Made by a program: the position numbers and the translations under genes | Part shown: in pieces, positions 16,067 to 61,459 of the stretch | Numbering within the stretch: position 1 is the stretch's first letter | Layout: each line of letters begins with the position of its first letter | Notes under the pieces: generated by a model | Databases searched by the model: none | What the model was told of the DNA's origin: nothing | The model's input: only the letters and a program-made list of their open reading frames with translations | Source: Gnetum montanum | Lineage: Eukaryota; Plantae; Gnetophyta | Assembly: GCA_015680685.1 (NCBI GenBank) | Contig: MNCI01002045.1 | Location: forward strand, 573,172-637,171 | Direction of reading: 5' to 3' | DNA length: 64,000 bases

Positions 16067-16744
16067 TTAGCAACCTATTTTTTTCAAGTTTTTACCTATT
16101 TGGAAATTTATAATTTATAATTTATTTTTACTAGTTTTTTCTTTTAAAAAATATTAACTAAATTTAAATTATGTTTACCATTTCTAGCCTGGTGCAACCT
16201 CAAATGACCAAGTTTGACCTAGTAAACATCATTTGATATCATTTCTTGATGACATTTTATACCATTTTTGATACCATTCAACCTTATTTGACCCTCGACA
16301 TTATTTTGCCTCATTTTGGCATCATTTGGTATCATTTGATGTCATTTTTCACAATTTTGACTTGATTTGATCATATTGGAGACCTTTGAATATCATTTTC
16401 TTAATTTAACATTATTTCTTCATTATGAAAACTTCATTTGATGTCTCTTGTGTCATTTTGAATCATTTAAACCCTTTTTGATGTCATTTTTTATAATATT
16501 ATATCATTTTGACATCATTTAGCCTAATTTTGACACATTTTAATGATATTTGACCTTGTTTCATCTTCATTTGGCATAACTGAATATCATTTGGTATTAT
16601 TTTCAATTATTTATGATATTAATTGGCCTCATTGTACTTTGTTTTACCTTGTCTTGACATTATTATGCTCCATGGTGTTTTATTACTATGTCATTTTGCA
16701 TTAGTTTAGCATTGTTGAGAAAATCTTATTGTACAAATGCCACT

Positions 16745-19700
16745 TAATGTGCTTTTGGTTGATGTATAGGGCTAGAACATGGGTACATGGACACAATTTA
16801 GCTTACATTTGAACTTGAGTAGACCCTACGGTGACATGGAGTGTTGCTTGAATAGATATTCAAAACCCTTGACCTTGAGGTTGGTGACCTTACTGAGGAC
16901 TTTGTAGCTAAGTTTCCTATCATAACACACAATGGTAAGGAGAAAATGCTAAAACTAATTTCCTCACTAGAACAACAACATGCTTAAGACATCACCAAGG
17001 TCCTTTAAAGCAACATTAAGACCTTTGCTTAGTTGTACAAGGATATGCTAGGTCTTGACCCATGATTAATGCAACATAACATATTCTATCCTAGTGTCAA
17101 ATAAAAGGTTCACAAAATTATAATAAACTTAGCCGTGGAAGTTTGTGATGAGATCATGAAACTTTACCAAGCTAGTTTCATCCAAGCTATTGATTATGTT
17201 GATTGGGTGTCTAACATAGTGGTAGTCCCCAAGAAAAATGGGATCATTCATATTTGTATAGATTTTTGAGATCTCAATAAGGTAATTATTAAAGATGATT
17301 TTTTATGACCTAGCATTAATCAACTTATTGATACCATGACTGGACTTATCTTGTTGTTCTTCATGGATGGATTCTTAGGATACAACCAAGTTAGGATCAA
17401 TCTAGAGCATTAACTCTACTAGACTTGCATGACTCCTTGGGAAATATTTTGTTATATCATGATGCCATTTGGTCTAAATAATGTAGGCATGACCTATCAA
17501 TGAGCCATGACCTACATATTTAGTGATTACATGCTAGGGTTGCTTAATGATAATGCTGATGACATAGTGGTCAAGTCCAATATAACCAATGACCATGCAC
17601 ATGATCTTAACTTAGTACTCCAATAGTGCTTATAGTATGAACTTATACTTAATCCTAAGAAGTATGTCTTTGACATTAAAATTGGTAAAATGCTTAGTTT
17701 TGTATTATTTAAAGTAAGGATATGTGCCAATATTGATTAGGTTAAGGACATAACCAACTTGGTAGTACTGACTAATCTTAAGGAGCTATGAGGACTAAAA
17801 GGTAGATTGTAATTTATTCATAGATTCATCTTAAGACTTATAGATAATCTACAACCCATGAAACACTTATTTGAGAAGGTAGTTCACTATGAGTGGATTG
17901 ACCAATGCTAAGAAGTCTTTGATAATATTAAGCAAAGGTTAACTCAACTATGCATTGTGTACCCACCATAGAAGGAAAAATCATTTTATATATACCTTGC
18001 AATATATGATGTGTCCACAGCCTCTCTACTTTGTCAAAAAGAAGATGATGGAGCAGAGCTACCCATTTACTACTTGAATCATGCATTAATAGCCTACAAA
18101 ACCTTATACCTAGAGGTTGAGAAATATTGCCTAGCCCTAGTCTTCTCCTTGAAGAAGTGGAGATATTACTTTTTCTAGAAGCCAAGTCAACATCATATGT
18201 AAAGATAATGTACTAAGATCCAACTAATATATACAAGAGTAGCCAAATAGCTCAGTGAAAGGTCATAACCGTTAAGTTTGAGTTGCATTACATCTCCCAA
18301 GCCTTAACAAAAGGTCATGTTATAGCCATGTAACTTACAAATTCCTCGATTGAGGACAACACATCCATCAATCCAAAGTTTCCCTATGAACACATCAACA
18401 TTGTTAATGAAGTACCCAAAGGTTATGAGGCCATCATGCACTTTGATGGAGCTTCAATTTCCCATGGAGCTAGTGCTGCTACAATCATAATATCATCATT
18501 TGGTGAGACACAAACTTTGACTACTGTTTCCATTTTGATGTACTAAAAATATAGTAGAATATGAATGGTTAATAAGAGAAATGATGGTAGCTCATAGCCA
18601 AGAAATCAAAATTTTGATGATAAAGGATGATTCACAACTCATGGTTAACTTGGTGAATAAGGTCTACACATGTAAAGCCAAACATTTACAACCTTAATAT
18701 GACCTAGTCAAGAACCTCATGCTACAATTTACAGATGTTGTCATTAAACACATACCTTGAACTAAGAATACCTTAGTTGATGACATTGCAACCTTGGCTC
18801 TTAGTGTAACACTAGATGTGTTTAGCAAGTTACCTTCCTTGATGGAGAACTATGCTCTTTCCATCACATAGAACACTAAAGGCACCTCTATAGTGACTAT
18901 TGACAATGTTCCTCAACAAGAGTGGTATGACAATACCAAATTTCATCCAATGCATGGTGAAACTCAATAGAACCTAACTACTTTTCAAAAGAATGATGTA
19001 CATAAAAGATCAAGATAATATGTCATTACAACCGATAACACATTATTTCAAAGGTCCTATGATGGCATATTATTGCTGTGCTTGAGAAAAACTAAAGCTC
19101 ACATAGTCCTTCAATAGGTTCAAAAAGGTGAATGTGGAGGACATATAGGACCTAGAGACATGGCCATAAATATTAGATGATTAGGATACTATTGACCCTA
19201 TATGGAAAGTAACTACTTGCAAAAGGTTAAAACTTGTGATACTTGTTAATGTCACAATAACTTAATACATGTACCATCAATTGAGTTACATACTAATAAG
19301 ATCATATGGCATTTTCAACCATGGGAAATTAACATTATTGGACCTATAAGGCCTAAGACTTTCATAGAGAAAAGCTTCATCATCTTCAGAACTAAATATT
19401 TTACAAGGTGGGCTTAAGCTATTCCAGTTAGGAAAATAATGTTTCAACATGTTTGTAAATTCATATTAAGCATACCCTTAACTATAGTCATAAACAATGA
19501 ACCATAGTTTAGTAGCTAGAAAACACAAACCTTTTATCAAAAATTAAGCATCAAATATTTCTTTTCATCATTATACTACCCACAAGCCAATGGACCTGCT
19601 AAAGCTAGCAACAAGATCATCATAAATCTTCTAAAAAGATGCCAAATAATAATAGATGAAAGTAGCATGAACAACTAGTGCACACACTTTGGGCATACAT

Positions 19701-20148
19701 AAAAACCTTTACAACTATAATTAGAGCCACCTCATATAGCCTTGTTTAGGAATTTGAAGCTATTTTACCTCTTGAATTATAGGTGCCATCCTTGAAGGTA
19801 GCTCTATATGATTTAATTAATGATGAGTAGAACAAGGAGCTATGTATCATTGACATTAATTTAGTGAAGGAGTAATGAATACAAATCCTTGCTCATGTCA
19901 AATGAAACCAAGAGAGGAAAAAACAATAGCATCTTTAGGATATAAATAAATAAAAAGTCATGAAATATGTCCTTATCCTTAAAGCCATTTGTGAACATGC
20001 AGACAAGTTCTTGGCCAATTGGGAAGGACCTTTCTTGATCACCAAAGCTTATGTTAATGGAGACTAAGCATTCAACCTTGCAAATATGGATGGGAATGAA
20101 TTGGCCAACCTGGACAACCATTTCTATCTCAAACCTTATTATATTTAA
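16745..20148 (+). pseudogene. pol: pol of element A (RT-RNase H-archaeal-type RNase H-integrase), heavily decayed
   Basis: WVSNIVVVPKKNG..ICIDF, FMDGFLGYNQ, MPFGLNN, aRH MHFDGAS...EYE...DSQL, integrase CGGHIG, YYPQANGPAKASNK, WEGPF. Confidence 0.92.
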
Positions 20149-21255
20149 CACTAACATATTCTTCTATAGTTCTTTTTTTTTAATTTTTAGGTATGGATGA
20201 ATGATTAATATCAATGATCTTTGTAGCCTACAAAAAGTGAGCTAGTTTGACCTCTCATCTCTCTCTTTTTGGAATAACAAGATACTACATACTTTATATA
20301 AGTCTACAAAACAAAATATAGATTTCTCATGTGATACAAATTATAACCTATGGTGGCCTGTATTCTACTTGTTTTCTCATATTACTGTATGCAATCTTTT
20401 ATAAGCACATGAATTCTTTAACGTATCTTCTTGTCCTCTTGGAGTTGTGCTTGTAGGATGAAGCATAAGGTCATCACAAGGATGCAACTCATCATGGTAG
20501 TGAGTTATCACATGACCTTGATATAAGAGATTTAGGTAGCTTGTCCAATTTTGCTAAGAGTGTTTACCTTACATCACTTCAGTTACTCCTTTTGAGTCAT
20601 AATCCTATAGCCAAATTACAACCTTCATTATCCTAATAACAATGAAAACCTATGTTTGACATTCATGTATTGTGATCACATGACATATCATTTGAAATAC
20701 TCCACCATCAAGTTCATTGAATGTAACACATCTCATATAATGAAAAAACAAACAAAATTTATCCTTGACAATAAAACCCAATGAAGGTTTCACCCAAAAA
20801 AAAAAAAGGAAAATCAAATTACCAAGAAATCCAAGAGGCCAATGAAGCCTAAAGTCAAATTAAAGGCTCCAAAAAAATAAACGAAGAAGCCTGATGGACA
20901 AAGAAGCCCATGAGTGGAGTGTTGGTTCCTCTAACACATTATTAAATAACCAATAGTTTGAACACAAATCATGAAGAACTCCTCGATTAACAAGCATGTC
21001 ACCACCATACCGTAGCCATGATGTCAACATTTGGAATCTATTATTGACCCATGTGATTATTTTTTGATAATCAATATAGCCTTTACCTCATCTCAAAATT
21101 ATGACGTTTAATCATGATCTTAGTTTGTCATTGTGAGAAATTTTGAGCATGGTTTGATAGCTATAGAAATAAGCATGGAGAAGGAGCATTGGTGATGAAC
21201 CTATGGTGGTGTTTCACATTCTTCAATGATCTCTTAGGTTAATCTTCAAAACATC

Positions 21256-21271
21256 AACAAAGAGGAGCCAA
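21256..21271 (+). promoter_or_regulatory. PPT of element A
   Basis: AACAAAGAGGAGCCAA immediately before TGAAAC; equivalent to B PPT 56933-56945. Confidence 0.75.
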
Positions 21272-21744
21272 TGAAACATCTCAAACAAATTCAAATAGAA
21301 GATAACTTCATTGTAAGAACTTTTAAATCATTTTTCATTGGGATGAATTTGAGACTTTCAGGGAAGTGCAAATCTCTAAGAGTTTACAACCATTTCTTTC
21401 TTAGAGTAGATCAATGTACCAGAGAAAACTGTGACAAGAAAAGTCCAAAGAGTATATCATATGAGATATTAGAAGTTAGATCTGATTGTAGAACACATCA
21501 TGCTATTATCATCAAATTTCAAGAATTTTATTTAAGCTCTCATGTATTGGAAGCTTACAACTTATATTCTCTAAAATTTTGTTTCAATGAATTTTTCTCT
21601 ATTCTAATACAAGTTTGTAGTATCTATTGTTTGCTACACTTTCCTTATATTTTTCTATACTTGAATCTAGCATTTAGACTACCATTTCATACGCTTTTAA
21701 TTTTTATTTCATATTTTGATAGAAAATATTTAGTTCCTTAATCA
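21272..21744 (+). repeat. 3' LTR of element A (right end tentative)
   Basis: Starts TGAAAC after the PPT and ends ...AATCA where D coding remnants begin. The partner LTR is outside the window. Confidence 0.55.
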
Positions 21745-36711: not shown

Positions 36712-38016
36712 TAAAAAATCACCTAGAAAATTCATTTTGTAACTTGTAACCTTCATCACCCAACTTGACATAAGATCTTATTGTAAATGTAATGTTTGTA
36801 GCCCATGAACTACAATCTTGCATATTTTAACTTTTTGGGGTTGAAAAATACCTCATAAGTTGCTACTACCTCACTTTCCAAATGGAAAAATTCTATCATG
36901 TCTATATATGGGCTTGGGAAGGCTAAAAATGCCTTGGCTATAGTTAAATTTGGCATTTTAAAGGGTTTTTGTTTAGGTACAGCCTCGACTACGATGGAAC
37001 CATCTACCCCTAGCATAGATGGTGTTTGGTTTTCATTTTCCAACATAACCTAGTGCAGTCACCACAAAACCCAACATAGCTGCACACATCCAACATTGGT
37101 ATTGTTGGGTTTTCCATTTTCCCAACAATGGCCAATGTAGGCATAACTATCTTCCAGTGGTGGTAGCATTGCTAGCATGGTCATCATGGATTTCTAGCAG
37201 CTATAGTTTGGCCAACNCAAAACTTGCTATAAATGGTCAACTTTGTTGAAAACCATAGTCATTACACCTAAAAATAAACATCAATTGGTCAACAATCAAG
37301 GCAAAAATTTGTAGCATGAAATCAACAACCTCAAGCCTACAAAAGCCAAACATAAACACATAATTCAGGTTTTAAACATTTTTTCTTGGAAAATTCCAAA
37401 AATAATTTTGTTTTAAACATTTCTTCAATTAAGAAACCTAGCAACCTTTACAACCTCAAGCATTTTACACGCTTTTTTGCACTTGTAAGACTTTTGGGAA
37501 GTAACTGGAATCTACTTGAGCACTAGAGACTCTTAGCATAGTCCCATTACCACCAAAGTCAAACATCATTATTTACATCGTGAACACCCAAGTGTTGCTA
37601 ACATGAATAGAAACCATCAAGGAGATGTACGAGATTGGTGTTGGAAAGTACTTGGATTGTGGAGTTTGATTGCAGAACACAACTTGCTAGCTTCAATAGG
37701 ATTCAACCTTCATCCAAGTTAGCTTCTTGTGTATTTGAGCAACCATTTGTACTTCTTGAAATTTATACTTTTATTCAATGAAGTTTTTAGTGTATTTGTA
37801 GTGTAGATATAGTTTCAAGTTTAATTCTCTATTTATTTATTTTCATTCGAATCTACAATTTTATTTTTCCATTTACACTTTGTAAGTCCTAGGGTGATCG
37901 AAAAGACTATCCAGGGTGCCTAGGATCTTATTTCTTTGAGGATCTTGGGATCCAAGGTTAAGCTATTGCACCTAGGATTTTTGGTTTTCTATTGACCAAA
38001 TTTTCTAGGTGGTATA
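36712..38016 (+). repeat. 5' LTR of B
   Basis: Aligns with 56946-58390 apart from ~140 bp missing at the 'n' (37217); termini deaminated (TA...TA). Confidence 0.92.
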
Positions 38017-38823: not shown

Positions 38824-41800
38824 ATGACCAACATGACATATGGTTAGGATGGATTGAGGATATATGATCCAAGAGACCTCACTTTGGCTAAGTGTAGATA
38901 GTCACTTAGGCAAAGAGGACAAATCCCAAACTTTGCTATACTCAATGAAGAGCACTACAACTACATTTGTGCTAAAATCCAATCTAGATTAATTCTCCCA
39001 TGTCCAGAGGTTGAAGCCAAACATGAATACGAGTTAATCCATCATAATGGGAAAGAGTATATACCCTCTCCCTATGAAAAAATATTACTTATTAATGTGC
39101 ATGCATGCATAATTTCTCAATTAATTGAGATAGACAAATGGAGTGAAAAGTTGATTTTAGAGGGCTAGCATGAAGAACATAATGAGTTTGAGGTAGAGCT
39201 TGAATTAGAAACCTTCATATGGAACCTATTCCAAAAAATGGCCTCTGACACCGCCATAAACACTTTAGCCTTGCCTATTTCTTCCATGGGATAGGTATCT
39301 CAACCATCATTTCTTGTATATCCCATGATGTTTGGGACTACACTAGTTGTGGTAATACACCAAGCATAACCTATGCTTCAAACGACCTCTCTTTTTTCTT
39401 TCATGTCTTTTGCCATGTAGCCTCAGTCTACACAATTATTACTAATGAATCTCACCATTGATCATCCCTTTTCTACACTAGTGGATCCCATAGTGATGCC
39501 ATAAGTGACTTAGGGAACACAAACTCTATTTTTCCCTTTTGTGCCTTAAGCGTTGGCACAAGCATCATCTTCATTATTTAGCCCATCCATGATCACCATA
39601 ACCTAGTCTCTCCCCTCTTTACCATAGTCCATAGTAAGGACATAGGTCTCTTAATAAATTCCTCAACCATTCAATCAAACATCATAGCTTGCAGGAATTC
39701 CCTAAGGGTTAGCTCAAGCAATTTAGATGATCCAAGACTTAATAGAAGAGTTTCAGAAGCTCAAGGCTTGCACAATTGAAACTGTAAAAATAATGGATTT
39801 CTACTAGGATGATCCCATTATTCCTTTATTCCCACCAATAACTCTTCCATCAAGCATCCCCATTCTACATTTCATCAAGTACAATAGTGAAGGCAACTTG
39901 AATGCCCACCTTATAACCTTTCATTCTGAGTGGCTACTACTATAAGCGTGGTTACATATCATAATGTAGATTTTCCCTATATCCCTTATTAGGAAATCCT
40001 TGGATTGGTATTGTGCACTACTGAGAGGATCCATATCCTCACTAGAAGACTTAATTTCATAGTTTGTTAACCATTTCAAGTACAACTTGAAACCTGACAT
40101 GACTCTTGACTAATTAATGAAGGTCAAGTAGAGATTCCTTGAGCCCATATAGAAATTCATACAATGATGGAATTATCTTCTTAACAATATTGTAGAATCA
40201 ATGGCTGAGACCCACCTTGTTATATTCAAGGGGATGATTAAAAACTTTGTTAAGTCAAAACTATATTACCTAGGACCATAAGCACTCAAGCAAGCCTTTT
40301 CCCAAATAAAGAACATAGAGGACATAGCAAAGGCTAGCCATGAACTTACCTATGTGGCATATAAAAACCAGTAAACCTAGAAAGATAAGAAGAAGGGGAG
40401 GCAAAACAACACAACTATGGCCACAATGGCCAAAGACAATGAGACAATTGCACAAGGGCCTAAGAAAATTCAGCCCAAGTCCCCTACTAACAAGAATCAA
40501 CCTTCAACTTCTGGTACCTCTACATCAACTACCATGAGGGCCAAATTTAAGCAAAGAGACAGATCAAAGTATACTATGTTACCACTAAAACCATTAGAAC
40601 TCCTTGATTAACTATTGAAGAGTGGAAGAATACAATACAAACAAATTATCAAAAATGCTTGCTAGAGGCATGGTTGACTCTACAAGATAGCCAAAGATTC
40701 CACTCTTGCAATCAAGAATGATCCCTTGGTGCTTAAATACTTCAAAATTTACCATTTCTGCCACTACGATCAAGTGCCAAGTTATGAAACTAACTTTTTC
40801 CTAGCACTTAAGGATGACCTGCAGAAGGTGATAGATAAGGATGAATTAGTCCTCGATGCTTCAAACCTAGTTAAACCGTAAAACCAATCCATGCAAGCCT
40901 ACTAGGACCCATTGAATACCAAAAATAGCCCATATAATATAGTGGCATTCAATGTGACTAACAACACTAGACCTACACCAAATCCATTCATGATACAGGT
41001 ACCTCCTCACAATGACAGGGGTCCTTCACCTTTGACTAGCTCAAGGTCCCATTTTGTTGTAAGGGTATCATTACCTATGCCTCCTAGGGATTCTTTTATG
41101 ATCAAGGTGCCCCCTTTTGTTGAAGCTAAAACTAAACCTACCCATACAATTGAAAAATGTCCTCCCATAGTGGCCAATGCAATAGCTTCTTCACAACCAA
41201 CCAATAACAACAAAAAATCCTTAAGAAAAAAACACAAAAAACCTATGCTAAAGCCCAAGAACAATGACAAAAAATTGGATAAGGCATGAAAGGAAGTGGA
41301 TCCACTAAAGTAAACTCCCATCTCATCTATTCCAATGAGTTCCATTGCCTAGGCTACCTCAACTGGTCAACCATGGGAGGATCCCAAGATGCAAGGGAAG
41401 GGAAAAGAAGTCAAGTAACCATTGAAGCATGAAGTTTACATTTTGAAGCATATGGAGGAAGTCAAGAATAGTAAAAATGAGAATCCTACAACCAATGACA
41501 TGGACTTTCTCATTGAAATGGAATAGGTTAAGTAGTTGCTAAAGAAAAAGAATACCTCCCTTAGCCTGTATGAGCTTATGATGACTTCTACAGTGCATCA
41601 CAAAGCATTGGTCAAGATGTTGATTGCTATTCCTGTTAGTGAGGATATCCTTGATAGTGACGAGTCCATACATGCAGTGATGGTGCCACCTTCATCAAAG
41701 GATGAAATGAGGTTGATCACATTAACATTTCATGATAGAAAAGTCAAGACCAATCCCCAAGATTTTGACACAACCAAGGCTTTCCTCTTTATAACCATCA

Positions 41801-42417
41801 TGGTGGGACAATATAAAGTGCATGTTGACAATGGAGCTGCAACGAATGTAATATTGTATACCATCATAGAATGTCTTGGCCTAACTAAACAAATGTAACA
41901 TACCTCAACAACCCCTCTTAAGTCCTTCAACGGATCTCAAGTGGCCATAAAAGGCTTCATTTCTTTAGACTTTATGGTAGGGGAATAATTCCCAACAATG
42001 GGCAATTTCTTGGTAATGGAACAGACACTAGGGTTCAGCCTTATCATGGGAAGATCTTGGATAGCTTAATTATGAGCTATTTCCTTACCAATCCATCAAG
42101 AAATTCAACTATCTTATAAGGAAGGTGAGATAATTATCCATGACAATAATGTGGTTTCCTTGGTAGTCAACAACATTGACATCAAACAAGGATTCAAAGT
42201 GGATTTTTAGGAAGAAACTTATACTATTATCCACAAAGTCAAGAATCCCAATGGAGCACAAGAGGTCAAAACTTAAAACAATGGACCCATGGATGCACCA
42301 TGAAAAGAACTCCCCTTCAACATAGTTAGTAAAGGAAATGGGGAATACCAAATTTTGCAAAGTATTCCATATGCATTTCCTAATCTCTCAAAAATTAGAA
42401 AACATTTGAAAAATTGA
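38824..42417 (+). pseudogene. gag: gag-protease of B, decayed
   Basis: HFIKYNSEG, GKSLDWYCAL, FKYNLKP, FCHYDQVPSYETNF, VHVDNGAATNVI, FSLIMGRSWI; ends TGA at 42415-42417. Confidence 0.92.
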
Positions 42418-42945: not shown

Positions 42946-43255
42946 ATGACCATTACAACCTAGTTTATATTATGGTAGTTTTCATAGTTAACCAATGTAG
43001 CCTATGACATAAATGAAAAACATAAATATTAAACATATGTTAAAACATAAAACATTAAAACATTTAAATGAAATTAAAACTTAAAAAGAATAATATTCTA
43101 AATGTTTGTCACATAGCATGACAAAAGTCTAAACATTACATGAAACAATAAATTGTCTATCAATTGATCAAATTGCTAACACTAGCTAATACCTCACAAT
43201 AATGTCATCAACTAAAATTGTAGAGATAACTATAGGGAATGACCAATAGATGGTA

Positions 43256-46173
43256 CTAAGGAGCTATTGGAGTGGACTGAGGAGCACTTCCATCTTCACC
43301 AGTGGGGTCATTGGCATCACCTAGTACCTATACCATAACAAAAACAAGAGTTTAACCAATAATTAACAAAGTATAAAACCAAATTATAAACTAAATCAAC
43401 TTAAACCAAAATATGCTAAAAAAAATAAAAGGAGAAAACCTAGGAGGGCTCGGGTATAACATCTTTTGGTGGGAGATTTAGAAGACTAACCTCCAAACTA
43501 TGGAGGATTTGTTCCTTAGTCAATTAGGCTCAATCCACCTCCCTAAGATTGATACCTATCAAGATGTTGCTATCATTGTTATCAATCCATGTATGTGGCT
43601 CCCATGAAAATGTCATAGTAGTCACCTCCCTAGAAGTGGTAGAGACCTAAGGGCATGGGGAATTAACCACAGTTAGAGTACATTTAAATAATTTGAAGAC
43701 ATTCTCCATCTGAATCCATTTCACAAACAGCTTGAACTTGCACCATTTAGTGGGCTTCTCTTTTAACCACTTAAGATAGGCTTCATGTTTAGCCTTGTAC
43801 TTCTTATTGTGGTCTTTCTATTCTTGGCCACAATGACGAACCTAGGCACAAGAGTTTCTCCACTTCCTAGCCTTGTGTGCCAACAAGTTCATTTGGATCT
43901 TTTGCTATACAACCTCTTGGGCAAGGGAAACCTTGTCATGGATGGCATTCTAGTACCATGCCCTTTGAATCTCTTTAGTTCACAAGAAACTCTTGTTGGT
44001 CACTTGGGCCTCCATAAATTCCTTACAATCTTTGAGACCCTAGTTAGCCTCAACCAAGTTTTTTTTTCTCATTCCAATGCTAAAACTCATTTCCATAGGA
44101 ACTTATTGGAATGTTGAACTTCCCATGAAGTTTTGATGCATGAAAATACATAATTAGTAGTACATTTTTGACATCTGAGGGTATGTTGGGCAAGGCATTA
44201 ATCTCAATGGGATGGTTGGGATTCCATCGAAGCTTAGGTGCTGAAACAAAACATAATAAAACATATGAAAAAAATAATAAGTAATTGAATAACCAAGAAA
44301 CAAAAATTGATAAAATGATCAAAACAATACAATCATAAAACTAAAAACTTAGAGTTTAAGATGAACTACGCTCTTACCAACATTGGGAGCAACCTATTGC
44401 AACCAATCAATCATGTTCTCAACCATCCCCTGCATGAAGTCCCTCTTATTAAAAGTGTTCAGCCATGGCGTCATGTGGAATGTGGAGGTTGAGGCAGTGA
44501 GCTGAGGCTTAGTAGCTAAGGCAAGCATAACAAGCAATAAAAAATTAAGACAAAGCTTAAACCAAAATAACAAAAGAACTTAAGCATATGAAACCAAAGG
44601 CATAAATACTCCAAGCATCATCTTGGATGATGATAGGAGGTTCACCTAGCTATGAGGATTGAATATAGCATCAAAGTCATCTAATGGGACATTGGAGAAC
44701 CCCTCATCCTCATAGCACTATAGGAGCTCATCCTCTAGGCATTTTTGCTCTACCTTCGCTACTGGTACTTGGGTCACAAACTCTTACTGCTTACCTATAA
44801 GAACAATAAGAGAAAAATGAAATATAACTTAGCATGTCTTTCCTAAAACAAAATAGCTATATAGCCTTATAACAAATAATAATAATAATGTAAAAAAACT
44901 AAAAAATAAAAGAAACTAAAACATACTTATAATCATATCGCATACTTGGCTAAGTCTAACCACGAACCTCCTCTTGGAGGGTTGCTCAATCACTAGTGTT
45001 GCCTTCTCAATCATGGACCTCTTTAGTTTGGATCTAGCCAAATCATTAGCTTTAGCTTGTAATGTCATGGCTTGATCAATGTTCCCATGCTCAACCTAGG
45101 GTTGAATCCCCATGCTATTAGGGGAAGCAAAATGCCTACCACTAAGTTCCTTAGTGGTAATAGACATTGACTCCTCGACATCCTCTGGTTGGTTGTAAGC
45201 ATGTATAGTATGAAAAACATGTTTAACCCATGGCTTGGAGAGTTGGGATGGATCTTGTCTTACCCATTTTACATCCTCTTTATCACCAAGAACTCCAAAA
45301 AACTCCTTAGATATGCCCCAAAGAATGCATAATGCATGTGGAATTTTGTTGTGAGGTTGTCATGGAGTTTGAGGATCTCATTGCATAGACTAGAAGCCAA
45401 ATGATCAACCTAGTTGAATCGAGCACCCTTCAAAAGGACCTCCTTCATGGTCCATTCCTATTCAATGCCCATTATATTGCCGTATGATAGAAACTTGGGA
45501 AACCCCTAGGATTGGAATAGGGGATATACTTCTCTAGACTCTTCAACCCAGAATTGGTTAGGAGACAATCCCTTTTGATCACGGTAACTACCCAACCACT
45601 CTTTCACCTTTTGGGTGCTTCACTTCTTTACCTACCTCAATGAAAATTTTTAGGCCTTCACAAGGAATGCCAAAGAGGTCACTAAAGGTGGATTCATTGA
45701 TGGCTAGGGTGATAGGCATACCATGAACTTGGGTGATGAACATCTTCACTTCTTTGTTAAAGGAGTTAATGATGTTCACCATCTTGGGCGTAGGGATAGT
45801 GGGGCTAGGGGCCATGAAGAGATCAAGAAAACCTAGATCAATAATGTTTTCTTGAATTTTTTTGAGCATCCTACTAGCCAACCACTATTGCACTGAACCC
45901 ACCTCACCATACTTGAGGATCAAAGTCTTCTCAAAGCATCCTAAAATGACCAGCATGATGGTAAAGGAGGTGCTAGCACCTATAGTACAACAAAAGACCA
46001 ATTAGCTTAAGCACATCAAACCAAAATATAGCAAGCATGATCAAATGAAAACCAAATTTATAACTAGTTAAAACCAAGTTTATAGCTAATTAAAGCCAAT
46101 AAAACCTTTTGAACACTTAGAGCCTAAGTAACATACAATCGTATAACCATGAAAACATTGACATGAAAATAAC

Positions 46174-46209
<36 letters not shown>

Positions 46210-47023
46210 TCTTTATCTTTCTTGCATGGGGGCCTCAACGGGTATGAAAGTAAGGTCTAACTTGTCCCACCAACCATACATTGTCCCATTACCTACACAC
46301 CATTGGTAGGCATTGGAGTAATGTGTAGTGTACCTGCCTAGGTTACCTCTTATTTTTTCCACCACCGGAAGCCTCACTATGGGTCTTTTGGCAAAAACCT
46401 TCAATGTTGTTAGAGCCAAGGGTAGGAGTTGATCACTTTTGATGAACCTCTTGTCATCCACCCTATACTTGTAAACATACCCATTCAAGCAAGAAAAACG
46501 TTACAACTAAATAGCCTAATAAAACAATAATGAAAATAGCCAAAAAATGAAAAATTAAAGATAGGCTTACCCTTCCACATGGTAAATAGTACTAGGAGGA
46601 TTCTAAAATAGCATGTGGGCCCAATGACGAACTAGCAAAGTGTTGTTGGCATTATAAAAGTTAATCTTAGGAATGTTCCTAATCTTGAACAACTTATGAG
46701 TATATCTTATATAAGTGCCATCAAGAACTTCACCCTTTGCACACATTTTAGGATCACCTTCTAGGAACTTGAAGATAAAGCTAGATGATTGGGGTAACAG
46801 AGTTTTCACAATGATAACAACCATGCAAGATGACAAGTGTGACCATACCATCACACTGAAATTTTGCAACACGTAGGCCAAGAACGCTTTTGCTCTAGGC
46901 TTGAGCCACAATGAGCCACACTTCAACATCATGTATGGAAGTTGAGTGTGGGGCCTTGGTGCATGGATGTAGCAGAGTAGCCCCACCAACTTAATGACCA
47001 CTAATATGGGTTTGAGAAAGACC
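43256..47023 (-). pseudogene. Antisense spliced accessory gene of B: FCP1/SCP(NIF)-like HAD fold + PMD/Transposase_32-like domain + coiled coil
   Basis: At least 7 exons: 47023-46571, ~46490-46217, 45979-44927, 44794-44609, 44515-44378, 44240-43440 and 43327-43256 (TAG). Introns are short, T-rich and mostly GT-AG, at positions equivalent to the copy at 1-2812. Confidence 0.82.
46170..46209. repeat. (AAT)n microsatellite inside an intron of the antisense gene
   Basis: aataataataat... directly visible. Confidence 0.9.
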
Positions 47024-49190
47024 CTGCACGCAACAACAATAACCATCAAAACCATAAGTAATCATAAATAATATAAAAAAATGTTAAATAGAAAAAATTA
47101 CATAAACTTTAATTTTAATTTTTCCATTCCAAATAGATAACCAAAACCATAGTTTCAACACTTAGAACCAAAACCAAAACTAGGAACAACTAAAATCCAT
47201 AAACAACCAAGTGGCCTACTAACAACTAATTGTAGTTTTCATTATAAGATATGCATAAAAGTGTAAAATTAATTTATGTAGAAATATCAGGTACATGAAA
47301 ATTATCTTGAACCTACAACAATAATCACCAACAGTAAATTTTGAAAAATTTTACTAGACATCCTAGTTAATGGTGAAATTAGCCATAGCAAAAACTCTAG
47401 GAGGGATAGTCAAAATTCTCTAAAAATCAAATGACTATTGAGAACCAAAAACTAACATGTAAATGACTTTTTGAATCTTTGAACATAGCTAAAAAATACA
47501 ACATCAACACCAATGCTACCTGTACAAATAGGGAGGTTTGTAGTTTTCATGGCCAAAACTATAACTATATAGAATAGTTTACACATGAATGAAAATGACA
47601 GAGTGGAACTAAATTTTTTTTCCTAAGGCTAGAAATTGTGTGGCCATTAAAATTAAATGGAATTTAGCATCTAAATTGTAGTTCCAATGTGAAATTTAAA
47701 ACATAAACCAAAGCCTTAACAACATTCAACAAAAATTGTACAACAACCAAAAGTTGTAGAAAATGGCTATAGTAGAGGATTGATAAAAATTATCATAAAA
47801 TTCTTAAAACTTGTGAAACCACTTCCAAACCTTCCCTAACATCCCAAAGTATTTCTAGGAACTTGGGATGTTGGCTGGAAAAATTTTCTAAGGTGCCAAT
47901 GCTGCACATCTTCACAGGGGTAAACCGTAAAAGCCAAAAAAGAAAAAACCACACTTTAAACTAGTTAATAAAAAGAATTTATCAAAAATCAAATATGTAA
48001 CTAAATTAATTAATTCCATAGCTATTGGAATGCTTAAACAACAAAATAAATACCCACATTAGAAACCATAAAAATTCCTAATCGTTTTTGTAGAAAATAA
48101 TGCAAAAGTAACATAAACTAAACCATAATAGCAAAACCCCACTTTGTGTGAGTTTATGAAAAAAATTTGTCAAAAATTAACCACATTGAAATTCAATGAT
48201 TCCATATCCAATAAAATTATTAAAAAAATAAATACAAAAAAAAAATATGAAAACCAAAAAACTGAACCATTTTTACACAAAAGAATACCAAAGTACCATG
48301 AAAAATGGCCAAAAATTGAGAACCCACTATACATTGTCTTATGGAAAAATTTGTACAAATTCAACCATAATTTAGAATCAAATGGTTTAAAACTACAATT
48401 GACCATTAAACATAGTACTAAAACCGTATGGCCATAAAAACTAAAATTTCTAAACCATTTGAGCACAAAAAATGACAAAATTTGTGTTTCTTTTTTGTCC
48501 AAAACACAAGAAAAATCCATAGAATTAACTGAAACACGTTTTTCAACACTAAAATCCCATAGAAATAGCTACAACTAACATAGGAATCTATTAAACCTCA
48601 ATTACAGCCAACACAAAAGATTGCACAAGCAAAAATGCTTAGGATTCTAGCAAAATTTCTTAAGAGAAGACTATAATTTATGTACTTGGGAGTCATAGCA
48701 ATGGAGTTTATAGCAATTACTAGTTGTGAGAGGTGAGAGAGGCCCTATGTAGCTACACCCACATCCTCTAGGGTTGGATTCCTACTAGTGGAATCCTTGA
48801 GCTACTAAAGCCTCCTACAACAACTGCACCCACTCCTTGGGGTAGAAAGGTTGGTCTAAGCTGGGGATGCATGTAAGAGAAGTTAGGATAAAATTAGAGT
48901 TCTAGTGCTAGGTTTTGATTCTTGGAAGTGATGAGAAGATAATGATTTGTGTAAAATTGTGTTTTGGAAATCACTTCCAAGCTTATGCACCTACCTTAAA
49001 AACCCTGGTTTCTCACAACATCCATCTAAGTCTCACTGAGCTCAATGATCACAATTGGAAGGTGGGACTACGTTAGGTGAGTGGGAAACTAATGCATGAA
49101 AAAATTCAAAATTAAGATGGACCCCACTAGACACCTATGTATTAAGCCAATGGAAATCCTAACACACTTGGATTTTTAGCTTTCCATAGT

Positions 49191-51530
49191 GACTATGCTA
49201 GGGTTCAAGCATCTAGAAGCCTTAAAATGGATTTGAAAATTCAAATAATGTCAAAAAGCACCTCACAACCACCCATCCATGTCATGAAATGTTATGTCCA
49301 AAATGGGAAACCAAGTGTTGACACTGATGGAAACTGGGCAACAAGGAAGGCCAAAACCCATACCAAAACTTGCTATTTTGGATAACTACATTGACTAGTA
49401 GCCTAACTACATTCGCTAGCATAGTCACAAGTGGGAGGATGTTTCAAAACATCAACCAAACTTCCAACTAACTTAAAAATTTCCAAATAATGCACCAAAC
49501 CTTAATTAGAACCTCCAATAGCTCTAAAATTCCATGAAACTAGTCAAAAATCCAACAAATCCATTTTCATTGCATGGACTATACTAGGAAGGCCTCAACT
49601 ACATTGGCTAGTGTAGTTCCAAAATAGTTGGGAGAGGATGAACACCAAAAAACCAAATATAAACTTCAAATTAACATATTTTAGCTTTTACATCACCCTA
49701 GAACCTTTGGTAGCCTTGAAATAGCAAACAATTGATCTAAAACAAGTTAAATTCCATTCCACACTTTAGACTACACTAGGGGTGACCTTGACTATGCTGG
49801 CCAACATATTTGTAGTGTAGTTGGATCAAGGTGGATTACCAAAAGTAAGTAACAACCTCTAAATTGCCATATTTTTACCCTAAAACTCCTTTGGAACCTC
49901 CAGTGATCTTGGACTGATAAATTGTGAGAAGAAAGAAGACTAAATTCCATTTTCATTTTGTGACTACATTAAGGAGGCTTAGGACTACATTGTCCAAAGT
50001 AGTCACACTCCTAAAACATAAAATGGCTTACCAACATGCCAATTTAACTTTCAAAAGCATCATATCAAATCAAAAATTTTACTAAAGACTTCAGAGACCT
50101 GTGAACCTTGCAACCTTGGTCAAAAATGGTCAAAACCCATCATACACCTCACATCCATACTATGACTATGCTAGATAGTGTAGCCTAGTTGTTTATAACC
50201 ATTTTTACATCAAAATAGTCATCAAAACTAATAATTTAAGGCCTCATATGCTAGTTTCAAACACTAGTGATCCTAGAACTCAAAAATGCAGTGAACCAAT
50301 CATAGAATTATACCAAAATTCAATGTTCATGTTGTGACTATGTTGAAGGGGGTTTGAATTACACTAGCCAGTGTTTTCCTAGTGTAGTCATGGTCTAGGA
50401 TTGATTGAACTAGTGAGTTGACATCCAAAACAATCCAAAACCTTACTTGGAAACCCAGAATCCAGTTTGGCCTTACCTAGTTGCAAATTCATCTTGTTTT
50501 AACCCTAGAAATGTTAGATTCACTCCATCTACATTGAGGCTAGGCTCAACTATGTTGGCCTACATAGTGAAAATGGAAAATCATTATCTGAAAGCCTAAA
50601 CAACCTTTAGAATTAGCTATCCTAAGCCAAAACCTTGGCCAGAGACATCGGTAACCCTAGGGATCGAACTACTATGTTGATTAACTATAGAAATCCACCA
50701 AAATCTAGATTCCAAACTTGACTACATTGGAATATGCCATGACTATGCTCGTCAATGTAGTTCTAATGAAGTCATGGTTGGAAATTAATGCAATTGGTAT
50801 CATGACATCCCAAATGGCCTAAACGTTAACATAAGACACCTAGAATATCGATTGACATTTCCTAGTGGAAATTTCACCTTGTTTCAATCATGGAAATGTC
50901 AAATTTCATGTGAATATGCTGAGGTAGACCTGTGACCATGCTAGCCAATATAGTCCTTGCCCCAAGTTGGTTTAACTAGCATAATAGCACTTAGAATGGT
51001 CAAAAACTTGATTCTAGAAGATTAGAACCTTGAAATCTTGGAGCTAGCTATAGTTTGACCTTGTTCAATCATGAAAAATTTAAATTTTAGTTCACCTATT
51101 TTGGAGAAATCCACAAATATCCTAGCCAGTGTAGTCATGAGTTGTAGGTGCTAAAACTTCACTTCAATAGCTTGTTTTGACTTCCAAATGGCCTATTCAG
51201 CCCTTCGAAGATCCTATGCTACCCTAGGAAGATGATAGAACACTGTTATCTACTTTGAAACCCCATAAATTCATTTCTCACATGCATCTATACTAGGGGA
51301 ATCTTGACTATGTTGGTCAACATAGTTTCAGTAGAGTCACTAGTATTGGCATCATTTCTAGCTTTTGGAGGGTGAAAACGAAATCAAAATACATCAACTT
51401 TCAAACCTAGTGCATAGTGCTAATCATACAAATCATCAGGAATCCAAAAATGGTCACAAAAAACTTAGGAAACCATCTACTACCACCAACTATGCTGGAG
51501 CATGATCTTACTATGTTGGCCAACATAGTC
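49191..51530 (+). repeat. Diverged ~191-bp tandem array with conserved 22-bp palindromic cores
   Basis: Cores at 49405, 49597, 49790, 49983, 50164, 50357, 50548, 50741, 50934, 51115, 51306 and 51509; inferred ancestral GACTACGCTGGCCAGCGTAGTC. Confidence 0.85.
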
Positions 51531-52372
51531 ACCGGGAAATCCTAGCAGAGTCACATCAAAAAGTGTTAGTTTTTCTTTCAAACAACCTCACCATGTGTTC
51601 AAACTCACCTGTCAACCATATAGACCTTTCCCATGAATCTCTAAGGTCTAAAATTGATAAAGTTTAGCTCTGTTTGACCAAAAATGATCTTTTTTATCAC
51701 ATGTTTTCCACCTTGGTTGGTTTGACCTTGTTTTATGATGTTTTGACTTATTTTGATATTACAATGCATGGTTGGCCTATAGAGATCACTAGTTGACCTC
51801 ATTCAACTTCTACCTAACTCCATTTTTTCCATATCTACCTTATTTTCTCTCTTTTGACATCCATTGACCTTCTTTGGCCTTTGATTGATGTTAGGTGATG
51901 TGGCTTGATCATACTTGACCATTGTTTAGCATCATGTAACCATCATGTGGCCCGCTAAGGCCTAAAACTAGCAAGACCATGGCTAGTTAAGGTCTAAAAC
52001 TAGCAAAATCTAACCTTGTTTGACCATGTTTTACCTTATGTTTCCTACTTTGATTGATTTAGCCTTTATTCACTATATTTTGACTCTATTTGACCTTGTT
52101 ATGCATCGTTGACCTTCATTGTTTGGCCTTGGTTTCATTATTAGTCATCAGGGCATCACTTGGTCCCATTCCACCAAGTGTTCCCATAGTTTGATTTTTA
52201 TTTGACCTTATGTAGCCTTTGCTTCATTTTATTTATCTTCAACTACCTCTTATAGCCTTTGTTGACCTTCTTTACACCTTGTTTAACCATGGGATAACAT
52301 GTTTTGATTGATTCATGCATAGTTGCTAGAGCATTTTATATCTTTTTGGCATTATTTACTCATTTTACCTAG

Positions 52373-55300
52373 GTGAAACTTAATGTGCTTATTGTTGATA
52401 TGCAAGATTGGAGTATGGAAACTTGGAAGAAAATCAGTTTACCACTAAATATAAGTGAACCTCATGATGATGTTGAATGATGTATTAATCTTAATTACCT
52501 AGATCTTGAGCCTGAAAGTCCAATCAACCACTTAGCCTCAATAGAGAAACCTCTAGAATTGCCTATAAACCTAGTTAAAATCCTTGACCTTGAGGCTGGC
52601 AACATTACTGAGGACTATCTAGTTGAGGTTTCTATCATGAGACATAGTGGTAATGAGAAAACACTAAAATTAAGTTTCTCACTGGAACCTCGGTAGGCTC
52701 AAGACATTACCAAGATCCTCCAGGATAACATTAAGGTCTTTACTTGGTCATATGAAGATATGCCAAGTTTTGACCCATGCCTAGTGCAACATAACATCAT
52801 ACTTGATCCTAGTATTAGATAATTTAAGCAAAATGTTCATAAGATTATGCCTGATTTAGCCTTGGTAGTTCATAATGAAATCACAAAACTATATCAAGCT
52901 AGTTTCATTGGATTTGTCAATTATGCATAATGGGTTTTCAACATAATGGTAGTCCCTAAGAAAATGGGAGTATACATATCTATATTGATTTTTGAGACCT
53001 GAATATGATTTTCCTTTGCCTAGTATTGACCAACTTATCAATACTACGGTTGGGCATGCCTTGCTATCCTGTATGGATGGTTTCTTGGGATACAACCAAA
53101 TAAGGATTAACCCAAAATATCAACTTATTATAACCTTCATGACCCCTTGGGGTACCTTTTGTTATACCATGATGTCCTTTGGCCTAAAGAATGTAGGAGC
53201 AACCTACCAAAATGTGATGACATATATCTTTAGTGATTATATGCTAGGATTGCTCAATGATTATCTAGACAATATAGCTGTTAAGTCCAAAGTGGTCAAT
53301 AACCATGCACATGATCTTAACCTTGTGTTAAAATAATGTCTCAAATATGAGCTTAGGCTTAAGCCTAAGAAGTGTGTCTTTGGCATCAAAATCGGTAAGA
53401 TTCTTGGCTTTGTAGTATCCAAAGTGGGAATACATGTCAATGTTGATAAGGTTAAGGCCATATCCAACTTGGCTACATTAACTAACCCTAAGGAGCTTCA
53501 AGGATTATAATGGAAATTACAATTTATCCTTAGGTTTATCATTAGGCTTACCGATAAGTTACAACCCATGCAACACTTGCTTAAGAAAGGAGTTCACTAT
53601 GAGTGGATAATTGAATGCGAAGAAGCCTTTGAAAACTTGAAGAAAGAGTTGGCACAAATACCTATAGTTTATCCACTATAAAAGGATAAACCTTTTTAAA
53701 TCTACCTTGTTATCTTTGACATGTCTATTGCCTATCTATTCTATCAAAAATGAGATGATGGAGTAGAGTTAGGCATATACTACTTAAGCCATGTATTGAT
53801 TACTTATGATACCTGGTACACTGAAGTGGAAAAGTATTATCTAGCCTTAGTCTTCTCACTGAATATGTGATAGAACTACCTCTTTAGAATCCAATTTAAT
53901 GTCATTTTCAAAGATAACATTCTTAGAGCCATCAAAACTAATATCTATAAAAGTAGACATATAGCCCATTGGAAAGTCATAATAGTTGAGTTTAATTTTC
54001 ACTACATATCTCAAGCCTTAATGAAGGATCAAGCTAGAGCCACATAACACACTATTACATGAGTAGAAGATCATGTAGCCATAGATCCTAAATTTCCAAA
54101 TAAACATGTTAACATTGTTAGCAATGTACCCGAGAGCTATGAGGTAGTCATGTAATCTAATGGAGCTTTAATAGCCCATGGGGCTAATGCTACTACCATC
54201 ATAACACTTCCATTTAGTGAATCTAACCCTTCACTTACAATCTCAAATTCCCATGCATAAACAATATAGTGGAGTATGAAGGATTTATCAGGGAAATGAT
54301 GGTAGCCCATGGCCTATGAATCAAATACCTAATGATTTAAGGTGTTTTACAACTTATGATTGACTAAGTAACCAAGGATTATGAATGCAAAGCTAAAACT
54401 TTACAACCTTACTATGACCTAGGAAAGAAAGTAATGTAACAATTTATAGACATTGATATCAAACATGTACCCTAAAATAAGAACATACTAGCGAATGCCA
54501 TTGCAACCTTAGCTCTCAATGTGATGCTTAATGTGTTTAGTAAGTTGCATTTCTTAATCATGGATTGCATCATTCCCATCATGTATAACATTGAGGATAG
54601 CTTTGTAGGCTCCGTTAATACTGCCCCTCCAAGAGAATAGTATGAAGATATCATGTTTTACCTTATGCATGGTGAATCTCCATAAGGTCTAACTATTTCT
54701 CAAAAGGACATTGTACAAAAATGATCAAACCAGTATGTCATTGTAGGCAATAATACATTATGTCAATAGTCATATGATGGAATATTATAAGTGTGCTTGG
54801 AAAAAATCAAAGCTTGCACAATCCTTAAGCAAGTTCATGAGGGTATATGTGGATGACATATAGGAGCTAGAGCCATGGTTGCTAAGATTAGATGGCTAGG
54901 CTATTACTAGTCCTATATGGAAAATGATTACTTATCAAAGGTTAAAACTTGTGACACTTGTAAATGGCATAATAACCTAATAGATGTGCCACCAACTGAG
55001 TTACATATGACTTAGATAACCTAGCCATTCCAATGATGGGGATTGGACATTATTAGACCTATAATACCTAAGTCTTCTGTAGGGCAAAGTTTCATCCTTG
55101 ATGTCACCGAATACTTCACAAAGTGGGTTGAAGCTATTCCCCTTAGGAAAACAACATCCCAACAAGTCTATAGATTTGTACTTTCTAATATAATAGCCCA
55201 TTTTGGCCTACCTATGAACATTGTCATAGATAATGGACCATAGCTTAGTAGCCATGAAATGAAGAACTTTTGTCATGACCTAGGTATTAAATTTCTTTTT

Positions 55301-55864
55301 GTTACCATACTACCCCTAAGTCAATGGACAAGTTGAAGTTAGCAACAAGGCCATCATAAACTTGCTTAAAAATATGATGAATAATAGTAGATGCAAATGG
55401 CATGAGCAGCTTGTGAATGCACTTTGGGCCTATCGAACCATAACTAGTGTAACTTCATATAGCTTGGTTTATGATTTTGAAGTCATTTTCCTCTTGAATT
55501 TCAAGTTTCATTACTTAAAATTGTTATATCAGAATATATCAATGATAAATAGAAGAAGGATCTACTTACCATGGACTTATACTTGGTGAAGAGATAGTGA
55601 CCACAAATGCTTGCTCACATTGAGTGATACTAGGAGAGGTAGAAATAATAGCACTACCATAATCTAAATAGACAAAAGGTTTAGAAGGGAGACCTAGTTT
55701 TCAAAGTTGTCTATGAGCATGCAAAGAAATTCTCATCTAGCTGGAAAGGGGTTTTCTTGATCACCAATTCCTACAGTAATGGAGCCTTCAAAATAGCAAA
55801 CATGAATGCAAATGAGTTGGCCAATCGAGTTAATCATTCCTATCTAAAACCTTATTCTATCTAA
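52373..55864 (+). pseudogene. pol: pol of B (RT-RNase H-aRH-integrase), decayed
   Basis: DFPLPSIDQLI, CMDGFLGYNQI, MSFGLKNVGATYQ, YLDNI, aRH NNIVEYEG, integrase EYFTKWVEAIPL, IVIDNGP, LWAYRT, WKGVF; preceded by acceptor-like TTTTACCTAG. Confidence 0.94.
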
Positions 55865-56932
55865 CACATTTTCTTGGTAGGTACCAACATCAACATCCAT
55901 GACGATAGTGATTAATAACAAGCGAGCCAATATTCCTTTCTGTACCTCCTTTTTCACGATAAATGGATTGAGAAACTTTATAACATATGTAATGCAAGAT
56001 GTAGATCCCTTTTGTATGTAATGATGGTGATCATTGGTGGCTTGGTTTGCTAATTCTTTCATGTAGCCCTGTGCATTGTATTGTGATAATATGCTCTATT
56101 TTTCTTATTTTATTCTTCTCTTAGAGTTGTTCTTGTAGAATGAATCTTGGAGTCATTGTGAAGGTAAAACTCATTATAGTAGTAGGTTTCCATGTGACCT
56201 TAATGTGTAAGATACGATGAGATTTTCCTATCATACCAAGAGTTATTATTCTGCTTTGCCCCAATTACATCTTCTTAAGCGCCACACCCATACCCTCATT
56301 ATGACCTTTCTCATCCTAAATCAAAAAGGTAACCTATGTTTGATAGTCATGCATTATGATCATTTGACATCTCCTTCATTATGCTCCACCATCAAGTTTG
56401 TTGAATGTAACATATCTCATTCAACAGGAAAACTAAATCAAACTAGGGCTTGGTAATGAAACCCAATGAAGGGTCCATCTCCTAAAAAAATGGGGAAGCA
56501 AATCTCTAAGAAGCAAAATGGTCAATGTTGACTAAAAGAAAAACCAATGGCTTAAAACATACAAATGGAGAAGCTTGATGGCCAAAGAAGCCTTGGAGTG
56601 AGGTGTTGGTTGCTCAAAAACATTATCGAGTGAGCAACACTACAAAGCACAAAGCGTAAAAACCTTACTTATTATTCAACATGTTAGTGCCATATCATAG
56701 CCATGATGTCAACCTATGGAACCCATTGGTAGCCCTCATAACCATTTTCTAGTGAACAAATATAACATGCAAAATTTTACCTCCTCTTCATAGCCTTTTT
56801 CCATTATCACAAAGCACTCTTTGACATGACTTAATACTATAGGATCAAGTGTAGGGAGGAAACATTAGTGATAGACAGTGGTGTTTTGTATTCTTTTTCT
56901 TTGTCTCTTAGGTTAATCCTCCAAACATCAAT

Positions 56933-56945: not shown

Positions 56946-58390
56946 TGAAACACACCTAGAAAATTCATGTTGTAACATGTAACCTTCAACATCCAACTTG
57001 AGGAAAGATCTTATTATAAATGTAAGGCTTATAGTCCATGAGCTACAATCTTGCATATTTTAACTTTTTGGAGCTAAAAAATGCCTCATAAGTTGCTATT
57101 GCCTTACTTCCCAAGTGGAAAAAGTGCTATAATGTCTATATATGGGCTTGGGAAGGCTAACAATGGCTTGGAGATAGCCAAATTTGGCATTTTCATGAAT
57201 TTTTGTAGAGGTATAGCCTCAACTACGCTGGAACAATCTACCCCTAGTGTAGATGGTGTTGGATTCTCATTTCCCAAAAAAACCCAACGTAGTCACCACA
57301 AAACCCAGTGTAGTTGAAATCATCTAATGTTGGTTTTATTGGGTTTTACATTTTCCTAGCAATGGCCAATGTAGTCATAATAGTTTTCTAGTGGTGGTAG
57401 CATGGCCAACGTAGTCATCATGGATTTCTAGCAGTTGAAATTTAGCTAGTGTAGTTACCATGATTTTAACAATTTCCAAAAAATGCTAGCATAGTCTTCC
57501 AAGGATAGCATAGTTGAGGTGAAGGCCAACATCATCATAATAGTATGTTTACAATTTTTAGTATACAGATGGGTTTTGATGGCTTTAATGCATAAAAAAT
57601 TCCTATAAATGGTCAACTATGTTGAAAACCATAACTATTACACCTACAAATAAACACCAATTTGTCAACAATCATGGTAGAAATTTGCAACATGAAATTA
57701 GCAATCTAAAGCCTATAAAAGATAAATGTAAAAATCTAATTTAGGTTACAAACATTTTCTCTTGGGAAGTTCTAAAAGGAATTTTGTTCCAAACATTTTT
57801 GTAATTGAGAAACCTAGAAACCTTTGCAACCTCAAGAATTTCATAGCCATTTTGGCACTTGTAAGACTTTTGAGAAGTAATTGGAATCTACTTCAGCACC
57901 AGATGCTCTCAATGTAGTCCCATTACCACTAAAGTCAAAAACCATTGTTTACACTGTTAACATCCAAAAGTTGCAAACTTGAATGACAACCAACAAGGAG
58001 TTGTAAGAGATTGGAGTTGGGAAGTACTTGGATCAGGGAGTTTGACTACAAAACATAACCTACTAGGTCTAATAGTCTTCAAGCTCCATGGAAGCCAGCT
58101 TCTTGTGCATTTTAGCACACCATATGTACTTAAACTTTAAACTTTTATTCAATAAAGTTTTCAATTCATTTGTAGTGCAGATTTAGTTTTAAGTTTAATT
58201 ATATGTTTATTTATTTTCATTTAAATCTACAATTTTATTTTCTTGTTTATACTTTGTAAGTCCTTGAGTAATCAACAAGATTATCTAGGGCACCTTGGAT
58301 CCTATTTCTCAGAGGTCCTTGGGATCCAAGGTTAGGATGTTGTACTTGGGGTTTTCAGTTTTCCAGTAACCAAATTCTTTAGGCACTACA
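56946..58390 (+). repeat. 3' LTR of B
   Basis: TGAAAC...CTACA, followed by TSD GTGGC. Confidence 0.94.
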
Positions 58391-61436: not shown

Positions 61437-61442
61437 GTTTTC

Positions 61443-61459
61443 TGGTGCTAGAAGGAGGG
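61443..61459 (+). promoter_or_regulatory. PBS (tRNA-Asn) of G
   Basis: TGGTGCTAGAAGGAGGG, 6 nt after the LTR. Confidence 0.88.

Follow-up and report, generated by a model that had tools for sequence, protein, structure and literature searches.

Antisense extra open reading frames are described in Tat elements (PMC4408406, PMC11963269), and they are reported to be kept under selection (PMC4408406, PMC6317226, PMC7264820). The antisense extra genes of plant retrotransposons are presented as having no known function and a mostly unrecognisable origin (PMC7264820). The pol order of reverse transcriptase (RT), RNase H (RH), additional RNase H (aRH) and integrase (INT) is given as the mark of Ogre and Retand of flowering plants, and the spacer of Ogre as an intron with a mean length of 274 bp (PMC6317226); the same pol order is reported from ferns, hornworts and lycophytes (PMC13468544). 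DxDxT is described as the NIF motif, and yeast Tim50 as a protein with no phosphatase activity (PMC13216928). Yeast Tim50 is a presequence receptor (PMC3257539).

In this study, the window, namely, the whole 64,000-nucleotide stretch of Gnetum montanum contig MNCI01002045.1 that was analysed, was investigated to follow up a sequence-only reading, which had noticed two diverged copies (A and B) of a phosphatase-like domain with replaced catalytic motifs. Beyond that reading, we found that an LTR retrotransposon holds an antisense gene of which the domain forms one exon, and that copies A and B are both now pseudogenes. We consider it probable that the inert NIF domain is the first domain of a spliced, family-owned Tat accessory protein, which would serve as a binding module and not as an enzyme.

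The Tat-type element and its antisense gene

One 21.7-kb Tat-type Ty3/gypsy retrotransposon (36712-58390) contains copy B; its LTRs are 81% identical (K2P 0.217), and the 5-bp target duplication GTGGC stands on either side. The parts of this element are as follows:

36712..38016, plus strand: 5' LTR, with target duplication GTGGC at 36707-36711
39700..42300, plus strand: decayed gag and protease region, gag assigned by similarity
47024..52400, no strand: spacer between the antisense gene and RT, the expected place of the 5' exon(s) and promoter
52400..55870, plus strand: decayed pol with RT, RNase H, additional RNase H and integrase, from Pfam matches
56946..58390, plus strand: 3' LTR, with target duplication GTGGC at 58391-58395

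A PBS-like site was recognised by eye from about 38021. The pol domains were matched by RVT_1 (E 1.4e-12), RT_RNaseH_2 (E 7.6e-14), RVT_3 (E 4.1e-5), Integrase_H2C2 and rve, in the order RT-RH-aRH-INT. The element's own gag is without a Pfam match and its protease reaches only E 0.1; the gag shares 59% nucleotide identity with the open gag of the window at 62696-64000 (Retrotrans_gag E 1.3e-6). A word-index protein search with the RT, limited to longer proteins and a weak negative, returned none among 40 candidates. The antisense gene sits between gag-protease and RT, in a spacer of about 10 kb, and this spacer may be a giant Ogre-like intron housing the gene. An AG acceptor-like site occurs just 5' of RT in two related elements (window 52406 and 16770). 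A 36-bp tandem array lies right after the protease (42721-42941), with one related unit (75%) at 51938-51977, near RT.

The antisense gene was outlined by comparing the two copies, and its parts, together with the element related to copy A, are as follows:

46571..47023, minus strand: copy B NIF/FCP1-homology exon, with an AG acceptor before 47023, a GT donor after 46571 and one in-frame stop
46217..46462, minus strand: copy B next putative exon, 31% amino acid identity to A over 64 codons, donor degenerate
44950..45979, minus strand: copy B large putative exon, frameshifted after its first part
43300..44794, minus strand: copy B further putative exons, with acceptor 44794 and donors 44646 and 44378 as in copy A
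2357..2812, minus strand: copy A NIF-like exon (2812 to about 2357), with the same acceptor position, 34% amino acid identity to B and six stops
1..2300, minus strand: copy A downstream exons, collinear with B, 59% nucleotide identity over 108-1801, running off the window start
16073..21293, plus strand: related Tat element represented by its pre-RT spacer, pol and 3' region, with 68.6% nucleotide identity to the pol of the copy B element

The peptides quoted in the sequence-only reading map to the minus strand, that of copy B to about 46576-47025 and that of copy A to about 2365-2814. Its assignment of 46217..47023 to a NIF feature stood for the exon 46571-47023; the interval also holds an intron and the next putative exon at 46217-46462, which may, judging by eye, complete the C-terminal helices of the NIF domain. 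Splice sites were chosen by eye from aligned regions. The two copies agree in the position and phase of the AG acceptor ahead of the NIF exon, and beyond this exon they are collinear for about 3 kb. Five splice signals coincide between them, and three junctions are degenerate in one copy. The NIF domain is likely the first recognisable exon of a multi-exon, probably spliced, antisense gene. No start codon or promoter of this gene was located in the analysis.

The first part of the exon at 44950..45979 is the most conserved piece (46% amino acid identity to A, 80 codons). This downstream block is plant-mobile-domain-like by eye only: Pfam gave no match to the plant mobile domain or Transposase_28, and the Atlas leads, including ATHILA (14% of members) and Transposase_32, reached only 0.83-0.88 (below 0.9). 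A word-index protein search with the downstream domain found none among 700 candidates, again a weak negative confined to longer proteins. Read data carry no weight for or against expression: in run X14, 24 reads overlapped 43000-49500 in part, and a few of these covered the NIF exon; run X11 gave 4391 reads, almost all A/T-rich partial matches; and no RNA splice joint was present among the 15 joints listed of 776.

The Tat element at 16073-21293 appears to carry copy A, a link that crosses nested insertions. Its pre-RT spacer has 57.5% identity to that of the copy B element, in which 51725-52482 is the homologous segment, and copy A shows the same strand relation and the same gene-spacer-pol order as copy B. 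Three nested pieces part copy A from this presumed pol, no homology was found between the upstream regions of A and B, and firm evidence for native carriage therefore comes from a single element. Among the contigs aligned from two DNA runs, none spans both the antisense gene and pol.

Several further insertions were observed in the window. An LTR element at 3178-8088, directly upstream of the copy A NIF exon, has 78% identical LTRs, the target duplication ATGGT and a gag that is copia-like by eye and without a Pfam match. At about 9720-13200, gag and protease are immediately followed by an apparent integrase C-terminal tail (by eye), with no RT and no LTR pair; this piece is likely a non-autonomous element, and a 22-bp tandem array lies upstream of it at 8782-9016. 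A likely solo LTR runs from 14774 to about 16014 on the minus strand, with a nearly exact 5-bp target duplication (TTAGC) and an internal tandem array at 15584-15996. The 5' end of a younger, GC-richer element with the same primer-binding-type motif occupies 61400-64000, and its open gag frame of 435 codons, which gives the Retrotrans_gag match above, runs off the window. The copy B element itself is inserted into another Tat-like element (34559-36711, 58391-59616), whose integrase it interrupts within the zinc-finger codons.

The possibility that the gene is part of a different element nested in the spacer of the copy B element (CACTA, MULE, Helitron or a captured host segment) bears directly on this arrangement, and we regard it as unlikely. 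DNA transposons are the typical setting of multi-exon genes with plant-mobile-type domains, insertions in the window are nested in one another, copy A is tied to pol only indirectly, and the interrupted Tat-like element, with gag at 30611-31180 and about 3.4 kb from gag to RT, shows no trace of the antisense gene. However, neither CACTA ends nor an internal LTR pair was found around the gene, and none of 86 short inverted pairs around it has a target duplication longer than 2 bp; old elements and Helitrons can be without detectable ends. The 36-bp repeat unit flanks the gene on both sides, once within the pre-RT spacer, and the strand relation and order recur near copy A. The spacer shares 241 9-mers with its own LTR and leader, against 168-190 in six other 3-kb regions, although these are raw counts without a shuffle control and the LTR region of the related element gives 215. 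Carriage of the gene by the Tat element itself is retained as the preferred reading.

NIF-type fold and altered catalytic residues

The sequence-only reading had assigned both copies to the FCP1/SCP (NIF) phosphatase-like fold of the HAD type and had suggested an HMM search and a structure prediction as checks. NIF (PF03031) is the top Pfam family for both copies (A, E=3.9e-4; B, E=0.014), with scores of 20.6 and 15.5 bits that both fall under the curated cut-off of 21.8 bits. A profile built from the two copies and searched against 1.84 billion protein representatives gave 35 matches at E<=0.001 and none at 1e-30, and 33 of these 35 proteins carry NIF. Twenty matches were looked up; organism names were attached to 11 clusters, all of them land plants. 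The Atlas returned NIF clusters at 0.90, many of them from large viruses; the top three matches are such clusters and have 163-171 features in common with the copies.

The homologue alignment and the structure model were made from 27 of the 35 profile matches plus both copies, omitting P0001 and seven long, mostly tandem-domain proteins. P0001, the top profile match, is repetitive and non-NIF, and was not considered further. When a profile of the 27 homologues without A and B was run against the six frames of the window, only copies A and B matched (E 1.6e-18 and 6.9e-22), a test that is partly circular because the homologues had been found using A and B; this six-frame search revealed no third NIF copy in the 64-kb window. 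A word-index protein search with the NIF exon found no relatives among 83 candidates (longer proteins only, a weak negative), and locus scans of metagenome and viral contigs confirmed no relative among 568, 119, 588 and 241 pattern matches. In the Asteraceae proteins P0002, P0004, P0006 and P0007, a tandem NIF pair was observed, and motifs I and IV are changed in the second domain; host genes, too, thus contain degenerate NIF copies.

The domain model reached a pLDDT of 77.8; it relies on the NIF alignment, the two copies alone giving 37. The top Foldseek matches were CTDNEP1, Tim50 and SCP1, with CTDNEP1 the best (E 6.7e-4), and in VIA-align the leading match was SCP1 (Z 9.1, rmsd 2.7, 113 aligned), followed by CTDNEP1 (Z 8.2, rmsd 3.4, 114 aligned); FCP1 was also among the best structural matches. 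By this model, the copies have an HAD Rossmann-like fold of the SCP/FCP type, in agreement with the fold proposed earlier. The sequence relationships of the homologues point to another group. The best PDB sequence match of their profile was UBLCP1 (E 5e-14), with SCP1 far behind (7.5e-6), and the nearest sequence group is an uncharacterised DxNG type with Asn at the +2 site. A quick tree of 43 rows (P0001 omitted) placed the copies outside the named land-plant group on a stem of 3.2 changes, so it says nothing about the donor of the domain. P0030, which has Val at +2 as in the copies, lacks a Pfam match and joins the copies via long branches only; it was rejected.

The motifs are numbered I to IV. 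Motif I reads K-L-V in copy B and E-L-V in copy A: the Asp found in 24 of the 27 homologues is Lys (B) or Glu (A), and both copies have Val at the +2 site, where 22 of the 27 have Asn. Motif IV is R-H (B) or V-H (A), where Asp occupies the first column in all 27 homologues and the second in 20. The replacement of the motif I Asp by E/K and of the DD pair by VH/RH, as read earlier from the letters, was thus confirmed against the 27 homologues. The motif II Ser is retained in both copies. The motif III Lys column holds His (B) and Trp (A) in the HMM register, or Arg and Leu in the MAFFT register, and both copies have a Lys one residue past this position. Twelve of 25 conserved columns (at least 70% conserved across the 27 homologues, start-Met column excluded) are intact in both copies, comprising structural sites together with the motif II Ser, whereas none of the four acidic/amide metal-site columns survives in either. 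In-frame stops within the domain number one in copy B and six in copy A, and no intact copy was seen.

Judged from these residues, the domain is a predicted pseudo-phosphatase of NIF fold, outside the active CTD phosphatases, whose DxDx(T/V) motif is absent from the copies. As the catalytic residues are missing, the product is likely a binding protein and not an enzyme.

The sequence-only reading had further suggested binding of the phosphorylated Pol II CTD or a decoy role, neither of which is supported. That the domain decoys or traps a phosphorylated substrate, for example the Pol II CTD, and so shields transcription of the element from host phosphatases, is in our view improbable. A substrate trap would need the metal and phosphate pocket, which appears largely gone, with bulky or hydrophobic residues in place of the metal ligands, and the analysis identified no CTD-binding feature. 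What weakens the CTD idea is that the nearest group is DxNG rather than DxDx(T/V) and that the PDB sequence closest to the homologue profile is UBLCP1 and not SCP1. These points are set against the high structural ranks of SCP1 and FCP1, the retained motif II Ser, the Lys beside motif III, and the nuclear regulatory role proposed for other antisense extra ORFs (PMC7264820). A binding module without substrate trapping is preferred for the domain.

Selection and related genomic copies

The NIF exons of A and B are identical at 52/66/40% of codon positions 1/2/3, the next exon at 45/64/25% and the conserved downstream domain at 60/79/39%. Between A and B, pN is 0.40 and pS 0.72, and dN/dS is about 0.24, only a rough value since dS (2.3) is saturated. 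The codon-position pattern shows past purifying selection on the domain. Val (+2) and His (motif IV) are common to both copies through synonymous codon differences. Together with the codon pattern, this indicates that selection acted at the protein level when the catalytic residues had already been lost.

The region is a high-copy repeat, with 9510 and 10793 contigs from two DNA runs aligned to 43000-49500, of which one run may be the window's own source; 433 and 643 contigs align to 46596-47022. The full table for 46596-47022 holds 23 differences at a share of at least 55%, and none falls in the codons of motif I (46992-46990 and 46986-46984; summed depth 764 and 365), motif III, His-110 or His-134. 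One of the 23 hits codon 133, where Gly (not Asp) accounts for 86% and 90% of depth, and motif IV in most relatives of copy B is G-H. This test sees only relatives at least 80% alike and bounds Asp carriers only to below 55% of depth. Related copies mostly share the dead motifs of copy B, so the loss is a family trait and not decay of A and B. These data support a catalytic-residue loss that is shared and older than the decay of the window copies, and the ancestral loss proposed earlier was upheld: Val and His were retained through synonymous codon differences, and most related copies have no other base there.

A separate observation concerns the motif II segment (46821-46865), where summed contig depth peaks at 5000-10000, several times that of the rest of the exon; the peak may reflect a large number of diverged subfamilies sharing only that piece, or chance short matches.

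The least probable reading, in which active family members make a functional phosphatase and the dead motifs stem from decay or from a passively copied defective subfamily, accommodates the pseudogene state of both copies with their heavy C>T and G>A load, the room left by the read test for an Asp minority or for diverged subfamilies sharing only 46821-46865, and the degenerate-motif proteins that stay active (PMC13216928), but it conflicts with Val and His being common at two catalytic columns via different codons despite saturated synonymous sites, with the loss of four of four acidic/amide sites against 12 structural sites kept, and with the same residues in most close relatives of B.

Proposed role and comparison with known systems

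If the product is an accessory protein of the Tat family, as we prefer, an antisense promoter in the spacer would drive a spliced mRNA. The introns would outlast retrotransposition because the reverse-transcribed RNA is the opposite strand, on which they would not be read. The dead NIF domain would bind a host or element protein, the downstream conserved domain would tether the product to chromatin or nucleic acid, and the product might thereby aid the element's transcription, its escape from silencing, or its integration. Such an accessory function has also been proposed for other antisense extra ORFs (PMC7264820), and the inert domain would serve for binding in the manner of yeast Tim50 (PMC13216928, PMC3257539). 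A more specific history is possible and is offered tentatively: the Tat lineage may have taken up an intron-bearing phosphatase gene as DNA, antisense in the gag-pol spacer, and turned it into a pseudo-phosphatase that binds a host regulator of transcription or silencing.

The open literature was searched for comparable elements. Reports of a NIF domain in a retrotransposon were absent among the matches listed, subscription papers lying outside this scope. NIF is absent from the domain table of PMC6317226 (domains in at least five elements) and from the domains listed in the parts of PMC11963269 consulted; a term search of five supplements of PMC6317226 gave none, although its element table and sequence file may hold such elements. 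In the parts of these sources covered, antisense extra genes in Tat elements are known, and the NIF domain, the protease-RT position and the introns were not found reported.

The TatIII/Ogre plant mobile domain genes, Retand TRP28 and maize Grande gene23 are, as here, antisense to gag-pol in a large Tat element. In the Tat extra ORFs described, the position is either 3' of pol, ahead of the 3' LTR, or 5' of gag, whereas this gene lies between protease and RT (43300-47023, with pol from 52400); they encode plant mobile, Transposase_28 or coiled-coil domains, whereas this gene has a NIF domain and apparent multiple introns. In Ogre, gag-protease is set apart from RT-RH-aRH-INT as in the copy B element, yet the 274-bp spacer of Ogre contrasts with the gene-bearing spacer of about 10 kb found here.

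The DxNG NIF proteins (PF03031) of land plants, protists and large viruses share with the copies the fold, the motif spacing and the patterns L-x-G-x-L, P-x4-F-L, W-S and Y-N-x-x-N-T. Compared with this group, the copies are without the motif I Asp, the +2 Asn and the motif IV DD, have 16-26% identity, are retrotransposon-encoded and stand on a very long branch. Yeast Tim50 and the fungal DxNxT NIF pseudophosphatases also have a NIF fold without the catalytic motif, but the copies lose motif IV too, with no sign of orthology or of a membrane anchor; the likeness to Tim50 would be a functional analogy only. An antisense extra gene with an identifiable host-type fold, in which the scaffold was kept and the catalytic site removed, provides a direct handle, namely, finding the bound partner. 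If the acquisition of a phosphatase gene outlined above is true, the pseudo-phosphatase would have a recognisable fold and would parallel, in plants, the accessory factors of retroviruses.
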